UHGV virus genome: UHGV-0038498
DNA from: a virus
DNA: 64,000 nucleotides
Reading direction: 5' to 3' (one strand)
The notes below the pieces were generated by a model. It made no database searches and was not told the origin of the DNA. It was given only the letters and a program-made list of their open reading frames with translations. A program made the position numbers and the translations under genes. Below, one piece after another: positions 4,708-61,715 of the stretch. The stretch's first letter is position 1. Each line of letters starts with the position of its first letter.

Positions 4708-4959
4708 ATGGAAACTTTAGTAGCAGGTTCAATTTTTATGGTTTTAGTTTCAGGCGTGTTGGCTATCATTATATACATGCTTCCGTGGTTCATCGCCTTG
4801 ATGCGTGGGTCAAAATCGACAGTAGGAATCTTTTTCACATCTTTACTGTTTAATTGGTCAATTATTGGTTGGTTTATTACATTTATTTGGTCAATTGCGG
4901 GTGAAACTAAAAAATCTGCACAACCGAATCAAGTAATTATCATCAGAGAGAAGGAATGA
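4708..4959 (+). CDS. imm: Superinfection immunity protein Imm
   Basis: 83 aa membrane protein METLVAGSIFMVLVSGVLAIIIYMLPWFIALMRGSKS...; T4 Imm length and sequence. Confidence 0.9.
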   Translation: METLVAGSIFMVLVSGVLAIIIYMLPWFIALMRGSKSTVGIFFTSLLFNWSIIGWFITFIWSIAGETKKSAQPNQVIIIREKE

Positions 4960-5105
4960 AAAGCAAAATTTTAGCAGTATTGCTTTTAATCTTGATGATT
5001 ATAATAAGTATATACTATAGCGTAACGGTTCCTTGTATGATTCCGACACTTATTATAGGTTGGGGTTTATTACTGTTACAAGTTAAATATGAATGTATCA
5101 ATTGA
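4956..5105 (+). CDS. Hypothetical small membrane protein (49 aa)
   Basis: ATG overlaps imm stop (ATGA); translation MKSKILAVLLLILMIIISIYYSVTVPCMIPTLIIGWGLLLLQVKYECIN; not in ORF track (under 60 aa). Confidence 0.4.
   Translation: MKSKILAVLLLILMIIISIYYSVTVPCMIPTLIIGWGLLLLQVKYECIN
4981..5005 (+). promoter_or_regulatory. Candidate MotA-dependent middle promoter for gene 42 (MotA box TGCTT 4981-4985, -10 TATAAT 5000-5005)
   Basis: TGCTT box 19 nt upstream of a TATAAT hexamer, the spacing expected for T4 middle promoters; lies inside the small ORF. Confidence 0.3.
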
Positions 5106-5112
5106 GGTTTAA

Positions 5113-5853
5113 ATGATTAGTGACTCTATGACAGTTGAAGAAATCCGTCTTCATTTGGGGCTTGCATTAAAGGAAAAAGATTTCGTAGTTGATAAAACTG
5201 GCGTTAAAACTATTGAAATTATTGGCGCATCATTTGTAGCAGATGAACCGTTTATTTTTGGCGCTCTTAATGATGAATACATTCAGCGTGAACTTGAATG
5301 GTATAAATCTAAAAGTTTGTTTGTTAAAGATATTCCAGGTGAAACACCGAAGATTTGGCAACAGGTAGCATCTTCTAAAGGCGAAATTAACTCGAATTAT
5401 GGTTGGGCCATCTGGTCAGAAGATAACTATGCTCAGTATGATATGTGTTTAGCTGAACTTGGTCAAAATCCTGATTCTCGACGCGGTATCATGATTTATA
5501 CTCGTCCATCCATGCAGTTTGACTACAATAAAGATGGTATGTCAGATTTCATGTGTACGAATACAGTACAGTACCTGATTCGTGATAAGAAAGTCAATGC
5601 AGTAGTGAGCATGCGTTCAAATGACGTTGTCTTCGGATTCCGTAATGATTATGCATGGCAAAAATACGTACTAGATAAATTAGTATCTGATTTGAATGCA
5701 GGTGATTCAACTCGTCAGTATAAAGCAGGTTCTATTATATGGAATGTTGGAAGTCTTCATGTATATTCTCGTCATTTTTACTTGGTTGATCATTGGTGGA
5801 ATACTGGCGAAACTCATATTGTGAAAAAAGATTATAATGGTGAGTGGAAATGA
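5113..5853 (+). CDS. 42: dCMP hydroxymethylase gp42
   Basis: 246 aa ORF MISDSMTVEEIRLHLGLALKEKDFVVDKTGVKTIEIIGASFVADEPFIFGALNDEYIQRELEWYKSK...; T4 gp42 length and sequence; implies hydroxymethyl-cytosine DNA. Confidence 0.95.
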   Translation: MISDSMTVEEIRLHLGLALKEKDFVVDKTGVKTIEIIGASFVADEPFIFGALNDEYIQRELEWYKSKSLFVKDIPGETPKIWQQVASSKGEINSNYGWAIWSEDNYAQYDMCLAELGQNPDSRRGIMIYTRPSMQFDYNKDGMSDFMCTNTVQYLIRDKKVNAVVSMRSNDVVFGFRNDYAWQKYVLDKLVSDLNAGDSTRQYKAGSIIWNVGSLHVYSRHFYLVDHWWNTGETHIVKKDYNGEWK

Positions 5854-6692
5854 TTCAATTCGTAATTCCAAGCTATCAACGCGTAGGGGCAGTTTCTGCC
5901 CTTGATATGTTTCCGACTGATTATGAACCTCATATTGTAGTACGTGAACACGAAGAAAAAGCTTATTATGACGCTTACGGGTCTAGAGCTAAAATTATAA
6001 CTATTCCTGATGATGTTAACGGAATTGCTGGTACTCGTAAAGCAATTACTGATATGTATGCAGGTCAACGAATTTGGATGATTGATGATGATACTACTAT
6101 TCGTATGAGTTCAATGCGAAAGAAAGATGATCGTCGCTGCGTAGATAAAATTAATCAGTTAACTCGTGAACAGTTCTATGAATTGATTCAATACGTTGAA
6201 GATGCCATGGATTGCGGGTATTATCATGGTCATGCTCGTCTGCCTATTTTTAAAATTACTTCATCTTGGGGTAATTATCGTGAAAATTCATATGGATTTA
6301 CGAATACCTGGTATGACCTCGGAAAACTTACAACAGAACAAATTGGGTATGGAAAAATTGATTTATGCGAAGATATGTATGCATTTCTCAATTTAATTAA
6401 TCAAGGTTATCCGCATTTGGCCTTGTTCAAATATCTGGTTGTATCTGGAAAAGCGCAAGCTCCTGGCGGATGTAGTTCAATTCGTAGTAATTCAAAACAT
6501 AATAGAGCTCTTGAGCAAATCAATAGAGAGTTTCCAGAGCAAGCTCGTTGGAAAACATCGAATATTGAAAAGAGAAAATCGTTGGGTGAAGAAGACGAGC
6601 CATTAAAGGTTCTTCGTATGTGTGTTTCGCGCAAAGAAAAATCAGAAGCGTTTCATAAGTTTAATGCTATTCATCCAATAGCAGTTGATTAA
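5850..6692 (+). CDS. Putative DNA glycosyltransferase (GT-A-like, DxD motif) occupying the beta-gt position
   Basis: 280 aa from ATG 5850 (ATGA overlap with gene 42 stop; track uses GTG 5844); product MIQFVIPSYQRVGAVSALDMF...RIWMIDDDTTIRM...; not similar to T4 beta-gt as I recall it. Confidence 0.55.
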   Translation: MIQFVIPSYQRVGAVSALDMFPTDYEPHIVVREHEEKAYYDAYGSRAKIITIPDDVNGIAGTRKAITDMYAGQRIWMIDDDTTIRMSSMRKKDDRRCVDKINQLTREQFYELIQYVEDAMDCGYYHGHARLPIFKITSSWGNYRENSYGFTNTWYDLGKLTTEQIGYGKIDLCEDMYAFLNLINQGYPHLALFKYLVVSGKAQAPGGCSSIRSNSKHNRALEQINREFPEQARWKTSNIEKRKSLGEEDEPLKVLRMCVSRKEKSEAFHKFNAIHPIAVD

Positions 6693-6747
6693 TGCCTAAA
6701 TTTATTGTGTTATAATTACTCTATCTTTAACCAGTGAGGAAAATATA

Positions 6748-6804
6748 ATGTTGCCTATGGAAAAAATGAATGTCTATTGCAGATTTAAAATCCCGTTTGA
6801 TTAA
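6748..6804 (+). other. Short upstream ORF (18 codons) with strong SD, overlapping the uvsX start in another frame
   Basis: GTGAGGAAAATATA precedes ATG 6748; translation MLPMEKMNVYCRFKIPFD; uvsX ATG at 6770 has only a weak GGA upstream. Confidence 0.25.
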
Positions 6805-7951
6805 AGCTTCCACTTCTAAAATGACTGCTGAACTGACTACATCTAAATTCTTTAATGAAAAGGATGTAATCCGTACAAAAATCCCAATGCTTAATATCGC
6901 TATTTCTGGTGCGATTGATGGTGGTATGCAGTCTGGTTTAACCATTTTTGCAGGTCCTTCTAAACACTTTAAATCAAATATGTCTTTGACTATGGTTGCG
7001 GCGTATTTGAACAAATATCCTGACGCGGTATGTCTATTTTATGATAGCGAATTTGGTATTACTCCAGCTTATTTGCGATCCATGGGAGTTGACCCGGAAC
7101 GAGTAATTCATACACCAATTCAGTCAGTTGAACAGCTGAAAATTGATATGGTGAATCAGCTTGAAGCTATTGAGCGTGGTGAAAAAGTTATTGTATTCAT
7201 CGACTCAATCGGTAATATGGCTTCTAAGAAAGAAACGGAAGATGCCTTGAATGAAAAATCTGTGGCAGATATGACTCGTGCTAAATCACTGAAGTCATTA
7301 TTCCGTATTGTTACTCCTTATTTTAGTATTAAAAACATTCCATGCGTTGCGGTTAACCATACAATTGAAACAATTGAAATGTTTAGTAAAACCGTGATGA
7401 CAGGTGGTACAGGCGTAATGTATTCGGCTGATACCGTATTCATTATCGGTAAGCGCCAGATTAAAGATGGTTCTGATCTTCAGGGGTATCAATTTGTTCT
7501 AAATGTAGAAAAATCTCGTACCGTCAAAGAAAAAAGTAAATTCTTTATTGATGTTAAATTTGACGGTGGTATCGATCCTTATTCTGGATTGTTAGATATG
7601 GCTCTTGAATTAGGATTTGTGGTAAAACCTAAAAATGGCTGGTATGCTCGTGAATTTCTTGATGAAGAAACCGGCGAGATGATTCGCGAAGAAAAATCTT
7701 GGCGTGCAAAAGATACCAACTGCACTACATTCTGGGGTCCTTTATTTAAGCATCAACCATTCCGAGATGCTATTAAACGTGCTTATCAGTTAGGTGCTAT
7801 TGATAGTAATGAAATTGTTGAAGCTGAAGTTGATGAATTGATTAACTCAAAGGTTGAAAAATTTAAATCTCCAGAAAGTAAAAGTAAATCAGCAGCTGAT
7901 TTAGAAACTGACCTAGATCAGTTAAGTGATATGGAAGAATTTAATGAATAA
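6770..7951 (+). CDS. uvsX: Recombinase UvsX (RecA/Rad51-like)
   Basis: 393 aa ORF MSIADLKSRLIKASTSKMTAELTTSKFFNEKDVIRTKIPMLNIAISGAIDGG...; T4 UvsX with a 2-residue N-terminal insertion and scattered substitutions. Confidence 0.92.
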   Translation: MSIADLKSRLIKASTSKMTAELTTSKFFNEKDVIRTKIPMLNIAISGAIDGGMQSGLTIFAGPSKHFKSNMSLTMVAAYLNKYPDAVCLFYDSEFGITPAYLRSMGVDPERVIHTPIQSVEQLKIDMVNQLEAIERGEKVIVFIDSIGNMASKKETEDALNEKSVADMTRAKSLKSLFRIVTPYFSIKNIPCVAVNHTIETIEMFSKTVMTGGTGVMYSADTVFIIGKRQIKDGSDLQGYQFVLNVEKSRTVKEKSKFFIDVKFDGGIDPYSGLLDMALELGFVVKPKNGWYAREFLDEETGEMIREEKSWRAKDTNCTTFWGPLFKHQPFRDAIKRAYQLGAIDSNEIVEAEVDELINSKVEKFKSPESKSKSAADLETDLDQLSDMEEFNE

Positions 7952-11373: not shown

Positions 11374-12402
11374 ATGCCATCAATACCTTGGATTGATAAT
11401 GAGTTTGCATACCGTGCATTAGCTCATTTACCTAAATTCGCACAAGTAAATAATAGTTCAACTTTTAAATTACGGTTTAGATGCCCTGTTTGTGGAGATT
11501 CAAAAACCGACCAAAATAAAGCCCGTGGATGGTATTATGGCGATAATAATGAAGGAAATATTCATTGTTATAACTGTAACTATCATGCACCAATCGGAAT
11601 ATATTTAAAGGAGTTTGAACCTGATTTATATCGTGAGTATATCTTTGAAATAAGAAAAGAAAAAGGTAAAAGTCGTCCAATAGAAAAACCTAAAGAACTT
11701 CCTAAACAACCTGAGAAGAAAATAATTAAATCTCTTCCGTCATGCATTAGATTAGATAAACTGGCGGAAGACCATCCAATTATAAAATATGTAAAAGCTC
11801 GTTGTATTCCAAAGGATAAATGGAAATATCTTTGGTTTACAACCGAATGGCCTAAATTAGTTAATAGTATAGCGCCAGGAACATATAAAAAGGAAATACC
11901 TGAGCCTCGTCTTGTTATTCCAATTTATAATGCTAACGGAAAAGCTGAGTCTTTTCAAGGACGTGCATTAAAGAAAGATGCTCCTCAAAAATATATCACC
12001 ATCAAAGCTTATCCTGAGGCAACAAAAATTTATGGAGTTGAACGAGTCAAAGATGGTGATGTATATGTTCTAGAAGGACCTATAGATTCACTTTTTATTG
12101 AAAATGGTATAGCTATTACGGGCGGTCAATTAGACCTAGAAATTGTTCCATTTAAAGATAGACGTGTGTGGGTTTTAGATAATGAACCTCGTCACCCTGA
12201 CACTATTAAACGAATGACTAAATTGGTTGATGCAGGAGAAAGGGTTATGTTTTGGGACAAATCTCCCTGGAAATCAAAGGATGTTAATGATATGATTAGA
12301 AAGGAAGGTGCAACCCCTGAACAAATTATGGAATATATGAAAAATAATATTGCCCAAGGGTTGATGGCTAAAATGCGGCTATCTAAATATGCTAAGATTT
12401 AA
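11374..12402 (+). CDS. 61: DNA primase gp61
   Basis: 342 aa MPSIPWIDNEFAYRALAHLPKFAQVNNSSTFKLRFRCPVCGDSKTDQNKARGWYYGDNNEGNIHCYNCNYH...; zinc ribbon CxxC..CxxC plus TOPRIM region; T4 gp61 length. Confidence 0.92.
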   Translation: MPSIPWIDNEFAYRALAHLPKFAQVNNSSTFKLRFRCPVCGDSKTDQNKARGWYYGDNNEGNIHCYNCNYHAPIGIYLKEFEPDLYREYIFEIRKEKGKSRPIEKPKELPKQPEKKIIKSLPSCIRLDKLAEDHPIIKYVKARCIPKDKWKYLWFTTEWPKLVNSIAPGTYKKEIPEPRLVIPIYNANGKAESFQGRALKKDAPQKYITIKAYPEATKIYGVERVKDGDVYVLEGPIDSLFIENGIAITGGQLDLEIVPFKDRRVWVLDNEPRHPDTIKRMTKLVDAGERVMFWDKSPWKSKDVNDMIRKEGATPEQIMEYMKNNIAQGLMAKMRLSKYAKI

Positions 12403-12599
12403 ATTAACCCAACTAAAGCAAATGCTAAATCTACGAATGTATCAAGAGTAATTACCGGAATATTAACACCATGAGCGATAGCAATTGGCGATAAAATAAA
12501 GTTCCAGAGTAAAATTCCTACCATAGCAGAAATAGTAAAAGCTATACGTTTTTTATTACCTTTTATGGCATTAACAAGTGCCATTAATTTTTGTACCAT
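12399..12599 (-). CDS. Hypothetical small membrane protein encoded antisense between genes 61 and 56
   Basis: 66 aa MVQKLMALVNAIKGNKKRIAFTISAMVGILLWNFILSPIAIAHGVNIPVITLDTFVDLAFALVGLI; minus-strand AAGGAGGA 5 nt upstream of ATG; stop overlaps primase stop. Confidence 0.55.
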   Translation of the reverse strand: MVQKLMALVNAIKGNKKRIAFTISAMVGILLWNFILSPIAIAHGVNIPVITLDTFVDLAFALVGLI

Positions 12600-12610
12600 A
12601 TATCCTCCTT

Positions 12611-12636
12611 ATTGCTTTATATATTTATTGTATAAT
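12611..12636 (+). promoter_or_regulatory. Candidate middle promoter for gene 56 (MotA-box-like ATTGCTTTA 12611-12619; extended -10 TGTATAAT 12629-12636)
   Basis: TGCTT box about 18 nt upstream of TATAAT; spacing 1-2 nt off the ideal. Confidence 0.3.
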
Positions 12637-12670
12637 TAATCTACTAACCCATGAATTGAAAGGAAAAATA

Positions 12671-13189
12671 ATGGCATACTTTAATGAATGTTCACAACTG
12701 ATCGAAGGCGCTGATAAAGCTCAAAATGAATACTGGGATATTCTCGGTGATGAAAAAGACCCGCTGCAGGTTATGCTTGATATGCAGAAATCTCTGCAGG
12801 TTCGTTTAGCTAAAGATAAACCTGAATATAACCGTCATCCTGATGATTTGGCTACTGCAGGCGAAGTTGTTGATTGGCTGCGTAATCAGAAAGATTATAT
12901 TGATGATGAATTCCGCGAACTACTGACTTCTCTTGGTGGTATGAGCAATGGCGAAAAAGATGCATCTGCTGTATGGAAGCCATGGAAAGCTCAACATGGT
13001 GAACGTCGTGAAACTCTGATTACTGATTTGTCTCCACAAGACCAGTTGGAAATTAAATTCGAAATGATTGATATTCTTCATTTCGTTCTGAACATGTTCC
13101 AAGGTCTCGGTCTTACAGCTGAAGAAATCTTTAAACTTTATTATCTAAAAAATGCCGAAAACTTCGCTCGTCAAGACCGAGGTTATTAA
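12671..13189 (+). CDS. 56: dCTPase / dCTP pyrophosphatase gp56
   Basis: 172 aa from ATG 12671 (MAYFNECSQLIEGADKAQNEYWDILGDEKDPLQVMLDMQKSLQ...EEIFKLYYLKNAENFARQDRGY); matches T4 gp56; the 203 aa track ORF is a 5' extension. Confidence 0.9.
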   Translation: MAYFNECSQLIEGADKAQNEYWDILGDEKDPLQVMLDMQKSLQVRLAKDKPEYNRHPDDLATAGEVVDWLRNQKDYIDDEFRELLTSLGGMSNGEKDASAVWKPWKAQHGERRETLITDLSPQDQLEIKFEMIDILHFVLNMFQGLGLTAEEIFKLYYLKNAENFARQDRGY

Positions 13190-24810: not shown

Positions 24811-24856
24811 ATGATTACCGGAGTATAATATTCCCGAAACCAAACGAGGATAAGTG

Positions 24857-26674
24857 ATGATTAAGAATGAAATTAAAATTCTGAGCGATATTGAACATAT
24901 CAAAAAGCGTAGCGGCATGTATATTGGCTCTTCTGCTAATGAAATGCATGAGCGCTTTCTGTTTGGTAAATGGGAAAGTGTTCAGTATGTACCTGGTCTT
25001 GTTAAGCTTATTGATGAAATTATCGATAACTCAGTAGATGAAGGTATTCGTACTAAGTTTAAATTCGCAAATAAAATTAACGTTACTATTAAAAACAATC
25101 AAGTAACAGTTGAAGATAACGGTCGTGGTATTCCGCAAGCGATGGTTAAAACACCTACCGGCGAAGAAATTCCTGGTCCTGTTGCTGCCTGGACTATTCC
25201 AAAAGCAGGTGGTAACTTTGGTGATGATAAAGAACGCGTCACTGGCGGTATGAATGGTGTTGGTTCTAGTTTAACTAACATTTTTTCTGTGATGTTTGTT
25301 GGTGAAACTGGCGACGGTCAAAATAATATTGTAGTTCGTTGTTCAAATGGCATGGAAAATAAATCATGGGAAGATATTCCCGGAAAATGGAAAGGAACTC
25401 GTGTTACTTTCATTCCTGATTTTATGTCATTTGAAACTAATGAGCTATCTCAAGTTTATCTTGACATTACACTAGATCGTCTCCAGACACTTGCAGTAGT
25501 TTATCCTGATATTCAATTTACCTTTAATGGTAAAAAGGTTCAGGGTAATTTTAAGAAATATGCACGCCAATATGATGAGCATGCTATTGTTCAAGAACAA
25601 GAAAATTGTTCTATTGCGGTTGGTCGTTCACCGGATGGTTTTCGTCAATTAACATACGTCAATAACATTCATACTAAGAATGGTGGCCATCATATTGACT
25701 GTGTTATGGATGATATTTGTGAAGACCTTATTCCACAAATCAAACGTAAGTTCAAAATTGATGTAACTAAAGCACGTGTTAAAGAATGTTTGACTATCGT
25801 CATGTTTGTTCGTGATATGAAAAACATGCGATTTGATTCTCAAACTAAAGAGCGTTTGACTTCTCCATTTGGTGAAATTCGTAGTCATATTCAGCTTGAT
25901 GCTAAAAAGATTTCACGCGCTATTTTAAACAATGAAGCAATTTTAATGCCAATTATTGAAGCTGCTTTGGCTCGTAAATTGGCGGCAGAAAAAGCAGCAG
26001 AAACTAAAGCAGCTAAAAAGGCTTCTAAAGCTAAGGTTCATAAACATATTAAAGCGAATCTTTGCGGTAAAGATGCTGACACGACTCTTTTCTTGACTGA
26101 GGGTGATTCTGCTATCGGATATCTTATTGATGTTCGTGATAAAGAACTTCATGGTGGTTATCCATTACGTGGTAAAGTTCTCAACAGTTGGGGTATGTCA
26201 TATGCTGATATGCTTAAAAATAAAGAACTGTTTGATATTTGCGCAATCACTGGATTAGTTCTTGGTGAAAAGGCTGAAAACTTAAATTATCATAATATTG
26301 CCATTATGACTGACGCTGACCATGATGGTCTAGGAAGCATTTATCCTTCTCTGCTCGGATTTTTTAGTAATTGGCCAGAACTGTTTGAACAAGGAAGAAT
26401 TCGCTTTGTCAAAACTCCTGTAATCATCGCTCAGGTCGGTAAAAAACAAGAATGGTTTTATACAGTCGCTGAATATGAGAGTGCCAAAGATGCTCTACCT
26501 AAACATAGCATCCGTTATATTAAAGGACTTGGCTCTTTGGAAAAATCTGAATATCGTGAGATGATTCAAAATCCAGTATATGATGTTGTTAAACTTCCTG
26601 AGAACTGGAAAGAGCTTTTTGAAATGCTCATGGGAGATAATGCTGACCTTCGTAAAGAATGGATGAGCCAGTAG
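24857..26674 (+). CDS. 39: DNA topoisomerase II large (ATPase, GyrB-like) subunit gp39, uninterrupted form
   Basis: 605 aa from ATG 24857 (MIKNEIKILSDIEHIKKRSGMYIGSSANE...); continuous through the region that in T4 is split into genes 39 and 60 (...LVLGEKAENLNYHNIAIMTDADHDGLGSIYPSLLGFFSNWPELFEQ...). Confidence 0.92.
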   Translation: MIKNEIKILSDIEHIKKRSGMYIGSSANEMHERFLFGKWESVQYVPGLVKLIDEIIDNSVDEGIRTKFKFANKINVTIKNNQVTVEDNGRGIPQAMVKTPTGEEIPGPVAAWTIPKAGGNFGDDKERVTGGMNGVGSSLTNIFSVMFVGETGDGQNNIVVRCSNGMENKSWEDIPGKWKGTRVTFIPDFMSFETNELSQVYLDITLDRLQTLAVVYPDIQFTFNGKKVQGNFKKYARQYDEHAIVQEQENCSIAVGRSPDGFRQLTYVNNIHTKNGGHHIDCVMDDICEDLIPQIKRKFKIDVTKARVKECLTIVMFVRDMKNMRFDSQTKERLTSPFGEIRSHIQLDAKKISRAILNNEAILMPIIEAALARKLAAEKAAETKAAKKASKAKVHKHIKANLCGKDADTTLFLTEGDSAIGYLIDVRDKELHGGYPLRGKVLNSWGMSYADMLKNKELFDICAITGLVLGEKAENLNYHNIAIMTDADHDGLGSIYPSLLGFFSNWPELFEQGRIRFVKTPVIIAQVGKKQEWFYTVAEYESAKDALPKHSIRYIKGLGSLEKSEYREMIQNPVYDVVKLPENWKELFEMLMGDNADLRKEWMSQ

Positions 26675-38085: not shown

Positions 38086-38877
38086 TTATACTCTTGCACC
38101 ATATATTGTACCAACTTTAGTCCAAGTTGGAGCATTACCAGTAACAGCTTTACCTGCTGCGCCACCCGAGTGAACAGTTCCTCCAGTACCACCTTGAATA
38201 TATGAAGATTTGCCCGCAGCCCCCAAATCTCCACCATCTCCTCCATGGTGAACCCCAGAAACAGTACCTTTACCAGGAGCAGAAATTGTAGCGGCAGATG
38301 CTGCCGATGCGCTGCCGCCTGCTGCACCCGCTGCACCAAATGGACGACCTCCGCCGCCACCAAATATCATATCCATTTGGGGGAAAGGATGATATCTAGC
38401 ACCAGCGCCGCCACCACCGCCACCACCGATAATACCATTATTGTTTATTCTTAAACGAGTTCCAATTCCGTTATTTATTGCAGTTCCTCCTGCTCCACCA
38501 GCAGAGTTACTTCCGCCATTTCCTCCTCGACCCAATACATGAACACCACTATTAATATTTAAGGTAACATATGCATTAGTTAATGAGCTAGGAAAATCTA
38601 AGCATGGTTGACCTGTCGATGAAGAAACGATATTGCCTGTAATTGTAATAACAACAGGAGTACTTCCTTGGGCTTTTATCCAATTTATTAGTGTGTCTTT
38701 ATTATAAGAATTGCTAGCACCAATGCTGTAATATACTTCTTTAGATTGTCCGGCCATTGAGCTCATCCAACCAGGAACTGAAACACGAACTGCTTTCATT
38801 GCAGCATCCATCCAACGTTGTCCAGTTTCATTCACGGCAGATTCACCAATCCAGCCAGGAACACCTACAATTGCCAT
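38086..38877 (-). CDS. 38: Receptor-recognising tail-fibre tip adhesin gp38 (T2-type, glycine-rich motifs)
   Basis: 263 aa; conserved N-terminus MAIVGVPGWIGESAVNETGQRWMDAAMKAV... and C-terminal half with poly-Gly blocks (GGGGGGGAG, GGGGRPFG, GGTGGT) separated by variable segments. Confidence 0.85.
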   Translation of the reverse strand: MAIVGVPGWIGESAVNETGQRWMDAAMKAVRVSVPGWMSSMAGQSKEVYYSIGASNSYNKDTLINWIKAQGSTPVVITITGNIVSSSTGQPCLDFPSSLTNAYVTLNINSGVHVLGRGGNGGSNSAGGAGGTAINNGIGTRLRINNNGIIGGGGGGGAGARYHPFPQMDMIFGGGGGRPFGAAGAAGGSASAASAATISAPGKGTVSGVHHGGDGGDLGAAGKSSYIQGGTGGTVHSGGAAGKAVTGNAPTWTKVGTIYGARV

Positions 38878-38907: not shown

Positions 38908-41900
38908 TTACATAAGTTTAGATTCAAGTTCTTTTACACGAGAAGAAAGTGTTTTCACAGCTTCAACCAGAAGAGCAATCTGGGCTTGAGAAGAAACAGT
39001 GAGTATTTTATTACCCTTGCTATCTTCTGTTTCATGGACAGCTTCTGGTAAAACGTCTTGCAACGTTTGAGCTATAATACCCGCTTCGGTTTGAACAGGT
39101 TCACCGCCTATATATTCAGCTTTGTCATAGATTAAACCATCAAGTTGCTCAACCCTTTCGAGCGCATTTTTAATAGGTTTAAAATTAGATTTCAAGCGAA
39201 CATCAGAACGAATATAAACGTTAGGAGCATTGACGTTTTTCTCGGAATAAACTTCACTTGAGGTGAATCTAACAACTTTAACGTTGTTCGCCCACGCTTC
39301 TAAAAGCCCATCGCCTACTTGTCTAAAACCAGTATCGCTATCACCAATTGCAATGGAGTTACCACCCCAACCGTTGGAGGTATTTACACCAAATGCTCTC
39401 GCAGATCCGCATGATAGTATAGGAGCATAAAATGTTCCATCCATGTCAAAAGTCCAACGAGCCTGTTGCCCCGATGGGTTGTCGCCACGCATGCGAATAA
39501 TACCTTGACGCCAAGTACCAGAAACACCTAACCATCCAAATTCAAATGATTGACGATAGCCCGCGTCAGTTAAAAAACTGTATCCAGAAAATAGCGGGTA
39601 ATAAGCTTGACTTGTCTTGGAAATGCCACCCGTATTCGCTAAGAATGCAGAATTGTCGCGAGTCACATTTGAAATAGCAGAAAAGCTAACACTCCATTGT
39701 CCGGCAGCTTTAACTCGTGAATTAATGTTTCCATTAATAGTAATATCTTTATCAAAAGAAGTATTTTCGCCAAGACGAACAGTACCAGCAGTCATATCGA
39801 TTGAAAACGGTCGTTTTCCATTCCAATCGCCTTCAGTTGCTTTATTATCGCCGTCTGAAGAGTTTTTGTCAGTCAGTAAAATATAGAAGTTTCCACCGTC
39901 ATTTCGAAATAAAACGGAATTAGAACCTGATCTATCAGAATTACTTGTAATACGAATACCAGTTTGGTTATTAATAGCAATTTCTGACTCTGCTACATAA
40001 CGCTTAGGCCCGTTAGGCGTTTTTTGCAAGTTATTCAATATACTTGCAACTTGACCTTGAATTGCCGTCTCAGGAAGTTCAACTGCAGTTTCTGTGGCGC
40101 CGGATGAATCTGAAGCAAATATTTGATTAACATTAGCGTTCGGTGTGGCATAATATGAAACAGCCAACGCCTGGGCGTATGTACCTACATTCACATAGAT
40201 ATCATAAACATCGCCTGATGTATTAACAGTGGCAACGTTTTTAATACCTTGAGCAACATCCAACGACCAAACAACAGCATTAATGCCTTTAGGATTGTTG
40301 TTAGAAGTTCTTAAAACAATTTGCGAAATAACACACTGGTGAGGAGTGGAAACATTATACCCGTTCCCGCCTGAAATTTCAAATTTAATAGTTGAGGTTG
40401 ATTGCGGCATTGTCACCGTTGCTAATTTGTACCAACCGCCAGTACCTGAATAAGAAACCATTCGGGTATTGACTTTACGATCTAATGTCGAGTTCAAGTT
40501 AGCAAAGTTAGGTAATGAACCACCCGTGATATTACCATCAGTACCAATACGAACATTACCAGCACCTAATTTACCAGGAGAGTAAAAATCACCGTTTTTA
40601 TTAAATTCCCAACCTAAATCCTTTATAATCGCGCCAGTAGAACCGCCATCACCACCTTCATGATAATGAACTCTAAAATTACCACCGTTAATTAAAGTAC
40701 CAATAGAATAGCAACTATTATTTTGTACGTATCTCTGTTTAACAATTGGAACATACGTACTTGTATCTGTGCGATTAATATTCATATAGAACGGAGCACG
40801 AACGTTTTCATTATTTTGTGAAGCAAATGAACCAGCCCCCGCAGGTCTAACAGCATCAGTACATTCTACATCGATGTACGACGACTGACCTAACTGCATA
40901 CGGTAATTAGGAGAAATACGACTATGACTAGTAACAACAACAAGTTTATTATCGTTGTCTACAGTAATCATATTGCCGCCTCTGCCGTCATCGCCTAACG
41001 TGACAGAATGACGCATTTGTACCATACCATTATTAAGACTAATACTTAATGGGCGGAGATTACTTATTCCACCACTTTCACCAGCATCTTTAGGAGTCGG
41101 GATAATATGTAATGATGCTTCTGAACGACGGAAAATAGCACCATATTCAGCATTCCAAATTCTTAATGCATCTGCTGTTCCACCAAATTTAGCTTGTCCG
41201 TTTACAGATAATCCATTATTAACATTTAAAGAAGATTCAGTTGTAATAGAACCAGAAGCAACAATACTGCCTGAAGTTAATAAACCACCATTAACTCGAA
41301 ATTGAATAGGTCCGACAGTAGAACCTGATCCGGGAGCAACTCGCTGAGAATAAAAATGGTAACCTTGCCCATCTGATACTTCAAAAACTGTTTCACGGGA
41401 ACGATCGCCAGATGCGTTAAATGAATTACCCCACGCTTTAACAGTTACATAGCTTTTATTCTGCCCAGCACGAGTACCACCTTCCCACAAAATTTGCTTA
41501 GTGCCATCAACCGTAGTAGTTGGAGCGAATGTTAGCCCAGCAGTAGAATTATTAGCTGCTAAATATACACCATTATATATTGAAAGCTGCTTAGTGGATG
41601 TAATACCGCCATCAGCATAAAACATTACATTATTTGCACCGGTTACTATTTTAAGAATACCCGGGTTAACTTCCATGCCTTCTTGGGTATTAATATTAGT
41701 TTTGCCTTTACCACGGAAATAGTGGTTCATTTTTCCGCCTGAGTTATAGCCAATATGTGTCTGGCCGTCTCCAGCAGTGTTTTCATCAGCCTGTGTTTGA
41801 ACTGATAAAAATGCAACATTCGTTCCAGGCATAGTCCATGTTGTACCTTGATCTTCTGAGCGACCAAATATACCTTTACGAGTACTACGGAAACTATCAG

Positions 41901-42891
41901 GCGTAATAGATGCAACGGAATAACCTCCACCAACTAAATCATAAACACCTTGTTTAATATATTTCAGACCAGTTACAGTGTCACCGAGAACAAGATACTT
42001 ATCACCCATTACCCCAGTATTTCCATAATCACTAGACGGGAAACCCGTAGTGAATGTACCTAATGCAAGGCTATTACGGCCAGCTATTCGGCCATCATTA
42101 CGAATACCATATTGTTTAGATTGAGGAGTATTACCAGTCCACCATGACATTTCATCAGCTTGTCCAGTCTGAGCTGTACAGATTTCATGCCACATGGTTC
42201 CGCCTGATTTAGCACGAACTTTACGAAGATAGTTTACTCCGTTAGTTTCACCGGTTCCAGGATAAACATACTGAACCAATGATTGTGAATCGTATTGTCC
42301 AAAGGCTTTAGAATCATGATTAATTAAATTAACACTAATAGTTGGTGTACTAATAGAAGTTAAAGCAGTTAACTTGCGTGCCTGGAAAATACCACCATCA
42401 GTAGAAATGAAATGAAATTCTGAATTTTGAGCCCCTGCTGCGGTTCCTTGACGAACACGCATTGTGATTACGCCTTCATTTTCAGACTGTGGTTTTGAAT
42501 ATAAAACACCTCTCTCCGATCCATCTGTATTTTCAAACCAAAGATGGGCATTGGAAGTATCATTTGTTGCTCTTGCGTAAAATGACCCTCGCATAGATCT
42601 GAAAACTTTTGCAGTTATGCCATCAGTAGAACCAATAGGTCCATTTACGGTCATTCCACCTGTTTGTACATAATCGCCATTTAACCTCAAAAGACCATTG
42701 ATAGTTACATTTCCATCAATTTGACCGCCTTTAGCAATACCTAGATCAATAATATTTCCTGAATCATCTTTAGTAAAAATTGTTCTATCTTTTAAGTTTA
42801 TAGCCAATTCACCTTCGGCTAATACTGAAGCAGCAGGACGTGCACCTGCGGTTTTGCTTCTTTTAAATTGTATTTGTTTTAAAGTAGCCAT
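38908..42891 (-). CDS. 37: Long tail fibre distal subunit gp37 with C-terminal intramolecular chaperone domain
   Basis: 1327 aa; N-terminus [51 protein letters not shown] typical of gp37; C-terminus ...[35 protein letters not shown]...[15 protein letters not shown] resembles auto-cleaving S74-type chaperone domains. Confidence 0.9.
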
Positions 42892-53345: not shown

Positions 53346-54377
<1,032 letters not shown>

Positions 54378-54378
<1 letters not shown>

Positions 54379-55238
54379 TGAAACAATACCAATTTTTAAT
54401 TAAAGATATCCTGGAAAACGGTTATGAAACCGATGACCGAACAGGCACAGGAACAATTGCTTTGTTCGGTACTAAATTACGCTGGGATTTAACTAAAGGT
54501 TTTCCTGCAGTAACGACTAAGAAGCTCGCCTGGAAAGCTTGTATTGCTGAGCTAATATGGTTTTTATCGGGAAGCACGAATGTCAATGATTTACGATTAA
54601 TTCAACATGATTCATTAATTCAAGGTAAAACAGTTTGGGATGAAAATTACGAAAATCAAGCAAAAGATTTAGGATACCATAGCGGTGAACTTGGTCCAAT
54701 TTATGGAAAACAATGGCGCGATTTTGGTGGTGTAGACCAAATTATAGAAGTTGTTGATCGTATTAAAAAACTGCCAAATGATAGGCGTCAAATTGTTTCT
54801 GCATGGAATCCAGCTGAACTTAAATATATGGCATTACCGCCTTGTCATATGTTCTATCAATTTAACGTACGTAATGGCTATTTGGATTTGCAGTGGTATC
54901 AACGTTCGGTAGATGTTTTCCTCGGTCTTCCATTTAATATTGCATCATATGCTACGTTAGTTCATATTGTAGCTAAGATGTGTAATCTTATTCCAGGAGA
55001 TTTGATATTTTCTGGTGGTAATACTCATATCTATATGAATCACGTAGAACAATGTAAAGAACTTTTGCGTCGTGAACCTATGGATTTATGCGAATTACAA
55101 TTAAAATTTCCAGATGAATTTGATGAATGGGACACAGAATCACAGGTATTTTGGTTGAGTCAATTCGCAAAGCCACATAATTTTGTTCTTAACAACTACG
55201 TATCTCACCCGCCAATTAAAGGAAAGATGGCGGTGTAA
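54378..55238 (+). CDS. td: Thymidylate synthase, intron-free
   Basis: 286 aa from ATG 54378 (MKQYQFLIKDILENGYETDDRTGTGTIALFGTKLRWDLTKGFPAVTTKKLAWKACIAELIWFLSGSTN...); catalytic Cys in ALPPCH; single uninterrupted frame. Confidence 0.92.
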
Positions 55239-58103: not shown

Positions 58104-58895
58104 ATGAAAGACCTACCTGCCATAACATATCCAGGTGCAAAACATAAGTATATGCCATTTATTAGACAATTTTCAAACCGCTTTGACGATAAGCCTGTTT
58201 TGGATGCTTTTTGTGGTGGTCTTGGATTTTCTATGAATTGTCAGAGAGATGTTATATGTAATGATATTAATACTCCTCTTATAGATATGTATAACAAGAT
58301 GAAATTATCTTCAATTAATGATATAGTTCAAATTATTGAAGACTTTAATTTGAATGACAAAGATTCAGCACCTTTTTATAATCTGTCAAAAGAATACGAT
58401 AAAACCAAAAACGGATTATATCTTTATGTTTTACATTTATTTTCATTCAGTTCGTTAATCCGATTTTCTAGTAATGGAAATTATAACGCGGCTTTCGCCA
58501 ATAGAGCCAAGTATTCCAGAACTTCTTTTAACAAGTCTCAACAGGATAAATTTTCTGAATTTAAAAATAGACAGCACCGATTTACATTTAGTAATAAATC
58601 ATTCAGAGATTTGGATTTTGAAAACAAAAATTTATTCATTGACCCACCATATCTTTCTACTAAATTTAAATATTCAGGCTGGGAAGAAAAGGATGAATTA
58701 GAATTATTAGACAAAATTAAACAATCAAAGTCTAAATTTATTATCACTAATAATCTATCAGACGATATTAACAATTATATTTTAAAAGATTGGGCACTTT
58801 CTAATAATTTCAAAATTGAATATTTTGAAACCATGTATAGGAAGCAAAAGAAAGGTGCATCATTTCAGACTGAAGTGCTTATACACAATATGTGA
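58104..58895 (+). CDS. Dam-family N6-adenine DNA methyltransferase (divergent), in the nrdA-nrdB gap
   Basis: 263 aa; motifs in Dam order: YPGAK (cf. WAGGK), DAFCGGLGFS (AdoMet motif I), NDINTPLIDMY, LYLYVLH, FIDPPY (catalytic DPPY); own SD (AACGAGAAATAAT). Confidence 0.7.
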   Translation: MKDLPAITYPGAKHKYMPFIRQFSNRFDDKPVLDAFCGGLGFSMNCQRDVICNDINTPLIDMYNKMKLSSINDIVQIIEDFNLNDKDSAPFYNLSKEYDKTKNGLYLYVLHLFSFSSLIRFSSNGNYNAAFANRAKYSRTSFNKSQQDKFSEFKNRQHRFTFSNKSFRDLDFENKNLFIDPPYLSTKFKYSGWEEKDELELLDKIKQSKSKFIITNNLSDDINNYILKDWALSNNFKIEYFETMYRKQKKGASFQTEVLIHNM

Positions 58896-58930: not shown

Positions 58931-60100
58931 ATGTCTACAGTTTTTAATACAAATCCAGTTGATGTTTTAAAAGAACCTATGTTCTTCGGTTCAGGTCTTG
59001 GTATTGCGCGTTATGATATTCAACGCCATAAAGTTTTTGAAGATTTAACCGAAAAGCAATTATCATTTTTCTGGCGTCCTGAAGAAGTAAACTTAATGAT
59101 GGATGCTGCGCAATTTAACAAGCTTCCTCAGTATCAGCAAGATATTTTTACTAATAACTTGAAGTATCAATCACTTCTAGATAGCATTCAGGGTCGTGCA
59201 CCGTCTGCTGTACTTATGTCGTTAATTTCAGACCCAAGTCTTGATACATGGGTTGCTACATGGACTTTTAGTGAAACTATTCACAGCCGTTCATATACTC
59301 ATATCATGCGAAATCTTTATACTGATCCGTCAAAGGTATTTGATGAGATTGTATTAGATAAAGCTATTATGAAACGTGCCGAGTCCATTGGTCGCTATTA
59401 CGATGATGTTCTAGTTAAGACTCGTGAATACCAAAACGCGGTTGAAGATTATGAAGGAATTTTATCAGAAGGATTTCGTAAAGACGAATTAGGCAAAGTT
59501 GTTGAATGTACTAAACGAGCACTAATGAAATCTCTTTATCTTTGCCTTCATGTAATCAACGCGTTGGAAGCTATTCGTTTTTATGTATCTTTCGCATGTA
59601 CCTTTAACTTCCATAAGAACATGGAAATCATGGAAGGTAATGCCAAGATTATGAAGTTCATTGCACGTGATGAGCAGCTTCACCTTAAAGGCACTCAATA
59701 TATTATTCGTCAACTTCAACTTGGCACTGATGGCGATGAATGGGTTAAAATTGCTCAAGAGTGTGAACAAGAAGCAGTTGATATTTTCATGGAAGTTAAC
59801 CGTCAAGAAAAAGACTGGGCAGTTCATTTATTTAAAGATGGCGATGTTCCTGGATTAAATACAAATAGCATGTGGAGCTTTATTGATTACTTAACTGTAT
59901 CTCGTATGAAACAGTGCGGTCTTCCATGCCCAATTACTGATGCTCCGGTTAAACATCCGTATCCTTGGATTCGTGAATATCTTAATTCTGATAATGTTCA
60001 ATCCGCGCCACAAGAAGTAGAACTGTCATCTTACCTTGTAGCACAGATTGATAATGATGTTGATGATAAAGTTATGATGGGTTTTAAAAAATATTTTTAA
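58931..60100 (+). CDS. nrdB: Aerobic ribonucleotide reductase small subunit NrdB, intron-free
   Basis: 389 aa MSTVFNTNPVDVLKEPMFFGSGLGIARYDIQRHKVFEDLTEKQLSFFWRPEEVN...; single uninterrupted frame. Confidence 0.92.
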   Translation: MSTVFNTNPVDVLKEPMFFGSGLGIARYDIQRHKVFEDLTEKQLSFFWRPEEVNLMMDAAQFNKLPQYQQDIFTNNLKYQSLLDSIQGRAPSAVLMSLISDPSLDTWVATWTFSETIHSRSYTHIMRNLYTDPSKVFDEIVLDKAIMKRAESIGRYYDDVLVKTREYQNAVEDYEGILSEGFRKDELGKVVECTKRALMKSLYLCLHVINALEAIRFYVSFACTFNFHKNMEIMEGNAKIMKFIARDEQLHLKGTQYIIRQLQLGTDGDEWVKIAQECEQEAVDIFMEVNRQEKDWAVHLFKDGDVPGLNTNSMWSFIDYLTVSRMKQCGLPCPITDAPVKHPYPWIREYLNSDNVQSAPQEVELSSYLVAQIDNDVDDKVMMGFKKYF

Positions 60101-60104
60101 GGAG

Positions 60105-60127
60105 TGGGCCGCAAGGCCCATTTTATT
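60105..60127 (+). terminator. Hairpin (TGGGCC-GCAA-GGCCCA) with U-rich tail between nrdB stop and denA start; possible terminator and/or SD-bridging structure
   Basis: 6 bp GC stem with GNRA loop; AAGGAG lies just 5' of the hairpin and denA ATG just 3'. Confidence 0.45.

Positions 60128-61715
<1,588 letters not shown>

Follow-up and report, generated by a model that had tools for sequence, protein, structure and literature searches.

The intact plus-strand ORF that separates gene 42 from uvsX in the 64,000-nucleotide stretch of phage DNA analyzed here (the window) encodes, with a probability that we put at about 93%, a T2/T6-type beta-glucosyl-HMC-alpha-glucosyltransferase (ba-gt, also termed ggt or TAGT). 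An earlier note on this DNA had placed a GT-A-like glycosyltransferase at this locus, and had considered T2/T6-style beta-alpha gentiobiosyl transfer among its possible activities. This suggestion agrees with near-identity of the protein to the T2 and T6 enzymes and with its match to PHROG 842. Overall, the window represents a Tequatrovirus of mosaic makeup, with ~97% identity to several isolates.

The ba-gt ORF and its neighbors

The coding features of the slot and of the hmC pathway, and the extent of the exchanged segment, are as follows.

5113..5853, +: gene 42, dCMP hydroxymethylase, source of hm-dCMP (Pfam Thymidylat_synt)
5836..6781, +: replacement cassette, 946 bp without T4 DNA homology vs. 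1941 bp (b-gt plus segA) in T4
5850..6692, +: ba-gt (= ggt = TAGT), very probable beta-glucosyl-HMC-alpha-glucosyltransferase, 280 aa
6770..7951, +: uvsX recombinase, right border of the slot (Pfam T4_UVSX_C, 132.8 bits, and RecA)
12671..13189, +: gene 56 dCTPase of the hmC pathway, which keeps unmodified C out of DNA

The presence of a 280-aa ORF in the 42-uvsX slot, as first noticed in the earlier note, was borne out by the ORF at 5850–6692 and by its neighbors. The ORF runs on the plus strand from an ATG (5850–5852) to a TAA (6690–6692) over 280 codons, and its 280-aa product contains RIWMIDDDTTIRM, with D79-D80-D81 encoded at 6084–6092. The TGA of gene 42 (5851–5853) and the ATG of ba-gt overlap in the sequence ATGA, which suggests that translation of ba-gt may be coupled to that of gene 42. 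An in-frame GTG at position 5844, two codons upstream of the ATG, is likewise open, and the ATG at 5850 is the start chosen in all annotated relatives.

Gene 42 had been described as intact, and its ORF (5113–5853) indeed yields a product identical to T4 gp42 at 238 of 245 residues (97%). The gene 56 product is 74% identical to T4 gp56 over 172 aa (tblastn) and matches Pfam dUTPase_2. Only imm, imm.1 and small ORFs were found between genes 43 and 42.

The 77-nt spacer before uvsX carries the sequence TGCCTAA (6693–6699) and, 11 nt later, TATAAT (6711–6716), both within the segment without T4 DNA homology. We take this pair (6693–6716) to resemble a T4 middle (MotA-dependent) promoter. A sigma-70 promoter scan of positions 4900–7000 gave a number of sites not above that of shuffled sequences, and the whole window gave no Rfam or tRNA hit. 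Two minus-strand ORFs (5832–6068 and 6407–6634) were rejected as mechanical: nothing supports them, and the coding region in which they lie is strongly conserved. A terminator-like hairpin in the 5′ end of ba-gt (5884–5904) was also rejected, with a hairpin count equal to the chance expectation and a folding z of -1.2.

In the T4 reference record, the order is 42, b-gt (1056 nt, 351 aa), segA and uvsX, with segA being a homing endonuclease gene. The earlier note had correctly placed a 351-aa b-gt between gene 42 and uvsX of T4, but had omitted segA from the same slot. By blastn, T4 homology stops at window position 5835 (T4 25497), 18 nt short of the gene 42 end, and restarts at window position 6782 (T4 23555), 12 nt into uvsX; from 6782 on, uvsX shows 88.5% nucleotide identity with T4. 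The ba-gt protein does not resemble T4 b-gt, in agreement with the earlier note: the best BLASTP match had an E of 3.4, and the Pfam b-gt family (PF09198) did not match. Homologues of a-gt, b-gt and segA were sought in the window by tblastn and none was found.

Identity and relatives of the ba-gt protein

The Shigella phage pSs-1 protein that is annotated as beta-glucosyl-HMC-alpha-glucosyltransferase is identical to the ba-gt protein at 280 of 280 positions. Identity is 277/280 with the enzyme of Durham phage NR1, 276/280 (98.6%) with that of phage T2, 274/280 (97.9%) with that of phage T6, and 273/280 with that of Durham phage BGP. The order 42, ba-gt and uvsX is common to T2, T6, pSs-1, NR1 and BGP; the ATGA overlap is also present in T2, T6 and pSs-1, and a 4-nt overlap of gene 42 and ba-gt is annotated in NR1 and BGP. 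The window gene and the T2/T6 ba-gt genes of PHROG 842 therefore have the same length (280 aa), slot, ATGA overlap and motifs.

Database searches placed the protein in the same group. The best protein match had an E of 4e-189, and the ORF is not a chance one; PHROG 842 'beta-glucosyl-HMC-alpha-glucosyltransferase' matched at E = 5.6e-89. By megablast, 475 phage records carry ba-gt at a nucleotide identity of at least 90%, all at full length. These records are mostly from Escherichia, Shigella and Yersinia T-even phages, and the named ones among them are annotated as 'beta-glucosyl-HMC-alpha-glucosyltransferase' or 'glucosyl transferase'. A further ~200 T4-like phages of Klebsiella, Enterobacter, Salmonella and Citrobacter have a relative at ~65% identity (tblastn). 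A scan of IMG/VR returned only five loci, all with Q10 and R11.

At the family level, Pfam TAGT (TET-associated glycosyltransferase, PF20691) matched at 38.8 bits vs. a gathering score of 27.5, with residues 3–207 of the protein covering positions 2–205 of the 205-position profile. When 1.84 billion representative proteins were searched with a profile, 2169 clusters were obtained at E ≤ 1e-3, of which 745 were at E ≤ 1e-10. The window protein shares with 78 diverse TAGT relatives the invariant residues R11, D80, D175, G186 and G207. Many TAGT members are found together with TET/JBP dioxygenases and act on hmC that is made on DNA, whereas the window ba-gt belongs with a gp42-based pathway in which hmC is made at the nucleotide level, and in T6 the acceptor base is already glucosylated (PMC13216743).

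Predicted fold and putative roles of conserved residues

A sequence search of the PDB with the ba-gt protein gave no significant match. When a 79-sequence profile was used instead, the only match, to the GT2 enzyme 9jma, was weak and did not reach significance, although it agrees with the fold search. An AlphaFold2 model was built from a nine-sequence alignment (mean pLDDT 71.5, pTM 0.74, moderate confidence); its first 130 residues are confident, and the conserved loops at residues 130–150 and 190–211 are poor. The modeled protein is a single Rossmann-like alpha/beta/alpha domain that resembles solved GT-A enzymes. Its fold matches GT-A/GT2 enzymes, Foldseek agrees with this, and no b-gt or a-gt structure was among the top fold matches.

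Structure prediction had been proposed in the earlier note as a check, and it returned a glycosyltransferase fold of the GT-A/GT2 type. The description of the protein as GT-A-like with a DxD motif also stands: D79-D80-D81 is present, the model matches GT-A/GT2 enzymes, and the Pfam family is TAGT. These data support the view that ba-gt is a small GT-A-fold, DxD-type transferase. The GT-A, GT2-like inverting enzymes BcsA, K4CP, TarS/TarP, AvpGT and WrtF show 9–16% sequence identity to ba-gt. The acceptor of the GT2-like enzymes is a glycan or a lipid, whereas that of ba-gt would be a sugar on DNA.

When 79 diverse members of the family were aligned, R11, D80, D175, G186 and G207 were invariant, and I6, P7, R63, D79, D81, G206 and R212 were at least 90% conserved. 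Most of these residues fall into four motifs.

5865..5882, +: 'IPxYxR' GT2-like loop, I6-P7-S8-Y9-Q10-R11, after strand beta-1; putative nucleotide-sugar binding
6084..6092, +: DxD motif, D79-D80-D81; putative binding of a divalent metal and the UDP diphosphate, from knowledge of GT-A enzymes
6369..6374, +: 'ED' motif, E174-D175; candidate catalytic base of an inverting GT-A enzyme
6465..6485, +: conserved loop G206-G207-C-S-S-I-R212, within the low-confidence model segment 190–211

In the model, D79-D80-D81 comes after the strand formed by residues 74–78, as in GT-A enzymes, and by analogy it would hold the metal and UDP. The E174-D175 pair forms the start of helix 174–184 and is paired with 'EED' of 9jma, albeit in a part of the alignment that is not significant; E174/D175 is likely to be the base that activates the acceptor 6-OH. 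The G206-R212 loop could possibly act as a lid over the acceptor or the donor. The residue roles rest on the analogy with GT2 enzymes, because no solved structure of the family was found by sequence search.

Conservation also bears on whether the ORF might be a decaying or non-functional remnant, a reading that we consider very unlikely. Loss-of-function alleles can exist in laboratory stocks, as an amber triplet at codon 10 in the T6 record MH550421 indicates. In the window, however, the ORF is intact, and the protein retains every family residue that is invariant or nearly so; several independent isolates encode an identical protein. The gene and its pSs-1 counterpart share 99.2% nucleotide identity and 100% protein identity; the differences are therefore synonymous.

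Proposed place of ba-gt in the hmC pathway

In the pathway that we propose, gp42 would make hm-dCMP, gp56 would remove dCTP, and the polymerase would build hmC into DNA. The a-gt enzyme would add an alpha-linked glucose to about three quarters of the hmC. As the last step, and by analogy with T2 and T6, ba-gt would use UDP-glucose to attach a second glucose, in a beta-1,6 linkage, at the 6-OH of the alpha-glucose, with alpha-gentiobiosyl-hmC as the product. The acceptor would be the alpha-glucosyl-hmC made by a-gt, rather than hmC. A beta linkage would be formed from UDP-alpha-glucose, and an inverting enzyme is therefore expected.

This scheme follows what has been reported for relatives. In T2 and T6, a-gt alpha-glucosylates ~75% of hmC, and the second glucose is attached by a beta-1,6 linkage (PMC6024577; bioRxiv 10.64898/2026.02.25.707755). 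DNA of a T6 delta-ba-gt mutant carries only alpha-glucosyl-hmC and is more sensitive to the Brig1 glycosylase (PMC11078745), and BapA frees glucose from the DNA of a T6 g-gt deletion, but not from wild-type T6 DNA (bioRxiv 10.64898/2026.02.25.707755). The Durham Tequatrovirus phages have a-gt and a TAGT gene syntenic with T4 b-gt, and lack b-gt (PMC13390438). When their DNA was analyzed by HPLC/MS, hmC, alpha-glucosyl-hmC and alpha-gentiobiosyl-hmC were detected, with NR1 and BGP among the phages analyzed (PMC13390438). The earlier proposal that this enzyme sets the sugar pattern of hmC is in keeping with such data, as near-identical enzymes occur in phages with measured gentiobiosyl-hmC.

In pSs-1 and T6, genes 47 and 55 flank a-gt, which lies ~11 kb upstream of ba-gt. 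The expected position of a-gt in this phage is beyond the left edge of the window, by about 6–7 kb in relatives. The window contains no a-gt by tblastn, so its presence in this phage is assumed from the relatives, which suggest that the phage probably carries it.

The T4 b-gt enzyme has a GT-B fold; b-gt and ba-gt both use UDP-glucose and both form a beta linkage. Although the two genes share the 42-uvsX slot, ba-gt replaces b-gt positionally but not functionally, because hmC left bare by a-gt would stay bare. The statement that this gene replaces T4 b-gt at the locus is thus correct for the position and incorrect for the function, the acceptor being alpha-glucosyl-hmC and not hmC.

Another sugar or another acceptor would be the alternative at this step: ba-gt might attach a different sugar (e.g., arabinose), or might act directly on hmC or 5-hydroxycytosine, as in the RB69-type (Mosigvirus) phages. 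The TAGT family is large and diverse (the 2169 clusters at E ≤ 1e-3), some members, which possibly differ in specificity, occur where neither a-gt nor b-gt is present (PMC13216743), and sugar specificity is not readable from sequence alone. Mosigvirus arabinosylation, however, involves a gp42 homologue of the 5-hydroxy-dCMP synthase type and a sugar-precursor cluster between gene 43 and uvsX (PMC13390438, PMC6024577), and both are missing at the window locus. The window gp42 is 97% identical to the T4 hydroxymethylase and is not of the Mosigvirus type, and no sugar-nucleotide biosynthesis gene was found between gene 43 and uvsX. The interval from the end of gene 39 (26674) to the start of rIIA (26943) is too small for a second transferase gene. 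Moreover, the ba-gt protein is 97.9–100% identical to the enzymes of T2, T6, pSs-1 and NR1, whose DNA is reported to carry gentiobiosyl-hmC. We therefore regard transfer of another sugar or to another acceptor as very unlikely, and arabinosylation, which the earlier note had offered as an alternative, is excluded by the T4-type gp42, the lack of a sugar-nucleotide cluster and the near-identity of the enzyme to those of gentiobiosyl-hmC phages (PMC13390438).

T2 and T6 alleles and the extent of di-glucosylation

Assignment to the T2/T6 type leaves a wide range for the extent of modification: gentiobiosyl-hmC makes up 72% in T6 vs. 5% in T2 (PMC6024577; bioRxiv 10.64898/2026.02.25.707755). Relative to the window, the T2 protein differs by R11H, K92R, I101V and P251S, and the T6 protein by Y40N, D55G, K92R, I101V and R106H, in addition to an amber at codon 10. 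Two of these changes are peculiar to T2 among the relatives compared: R11H, which changes the family-invariant arginine (window codon 11, 5880–5882), and P251S. Outside seven T2 records, the precise T2 sequence context occurs only in SV76, whose record is as long (163,826 bases) as one of the T2 records. In the window, R11 and P251 are present, as in T6, NR1 and all other relatives examined.

The R11H change tracks the uniquely low gentiobiosyl content of T2, which suggests a hypomorphic T2 allele. We tentatively propose, at somewhat less than even odds, that the low level in T2 (~5% vs. 72% in T6) is caused by R11H in ba-gt, possibly together with P251S. This explanation was not found stated in the literature searched, which did not extend to the 1993 study in which the T2 and T6 genes were reportedly cloned. 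If it is true, then (i) R11 and P251 in the window predict a T6-like, highly di-glucosylated genome; and (ii) position 11 is a possible sequence marker for the modification level in T-even phages.

The window has R11, like T6 and unlike T2, and a high, T6-like share of gentiobiosyl-hmC would therefore be expected in this phage. The contrary reading, in which ba-gt contributes little, as in T2 (~5% gentiobiosyl-hmC), and the DNA is essentially alpha-monoglucosylated, seems unlikely to us, albeit with some evidence in its favor. The T2 gene product is 98.6% identical and yet goes along with ~5% gentiobiosyl-hmC (PMC6024577; bioRxiv 10.64898/2026.02.25.707755), and the Durham phages, with near-identical enzymes, differ in their ratio (1:2:2 vs. 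roughly two thirds; PMC13390438). Since near-identical enzymes go with widely differing di-glucosylation, its extent is not readable from sequence with certainty. Against a T2-like level, the window retains both residues at which T2 is specifically changed, and in NR1 (277/280), the closest of the relatives with measured DNA, gentiobiosyl-hmC accounts for about two thirds (PMC13390438). A T6-like level is the reading that we prefer for this phage.

In the T6 record MH550421, codon 10 of ba-gt is TAG instead of CAA, and no other phage record shares the 28-mer with this TAG. As a consequence of this TAG, the CDS in that record is annotated from M20 (261 aa), a start that would remove strand beta-1 and the IPSYxR loop. 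Either a sequencing error or an amber mutation particular to that stock may account for the TAG; the T6 stocks of recent work clearly have an active ba-gt (PMC11078745).

Other features of the window

A T4-type dam is missing between gene 61 (11374–12402) and gene 56 (12671–13189), where the gap spans 12403–12670. A D12-class N6-adenine DNA methyltransferase gene is located at 58104–58895 (+), between nrdA and nrdB. Its product matches PF02086 at 84 bits and is 33% identical to T4 Dam, and the gene has a nucleotide-level match in only 7 of 50,697 phage records, including NR1 and BGP.

The td gene (54366–55238, 290 aa, with a full-length Thymidylat_synt match) and nrdB (58931–60100) are uninterrupted ORFs. 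No Rfam family, group I introns included, reached its gathering score anywhere in the window, and the window thus seems to lack the introns of T4 td and nrdB. A 144-aa GIY-YIG ORF (60104–60538, +) is flanked by nrdB and the RNA ligase 1 gene and probably is a seg-type homing endonuclease gene or a remnant of one.

From ORF lengths alone, the ORF at 24854–26674 (+), next to rIIA, may encode a single 606-aa topoisomerase large subunit, in contrast to the split genes 39 and 60 of T4. By the same measure, the tail-fiber region looks T2/T6-like to us, with a 1327-aa gp37-like ORF (38908–42891, -) and a 263-aa gp38-like ORF (38086–38877, -).

Discussion

The ba-gt gene is a long-known, named gene, which the earlier note had not recognized, and its product, fold class and position are already published. 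Classical work, for which PMC6024577 is a review, dealt with the enzyme and its product. The assignment to Pfam TAGT, the AlphaFold-based GT-A fold with its clustering beside GT2 and the distribution in 753 phage genomes have been reported (PMC13216743), as has the synteny of ba-gt with T4 b-gt (PMC13390438). GenBank already lists an identical protein, from pSs-1, with the right name. Because gene, product, fold class and position have been published, the assignment adds nothing new to biology.

For the phage itself, the second glucose alters which host defenses can attack its DNA. Gentiobiosyl-hmC resists the Brig1 glycosylase in vitro (PMC11078745) and the BapA glucosyl hydrolase (bioRxiv 10.64898/2026.02.25.707755), and it is still targeted by GmrSD-type enzymes such as BrxU (PMC13390438, PMC13216743). 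A ba-gt gene of the T2/T6 type with a T6-like R11 thus helps to predict the host range of this phage against such defenses.
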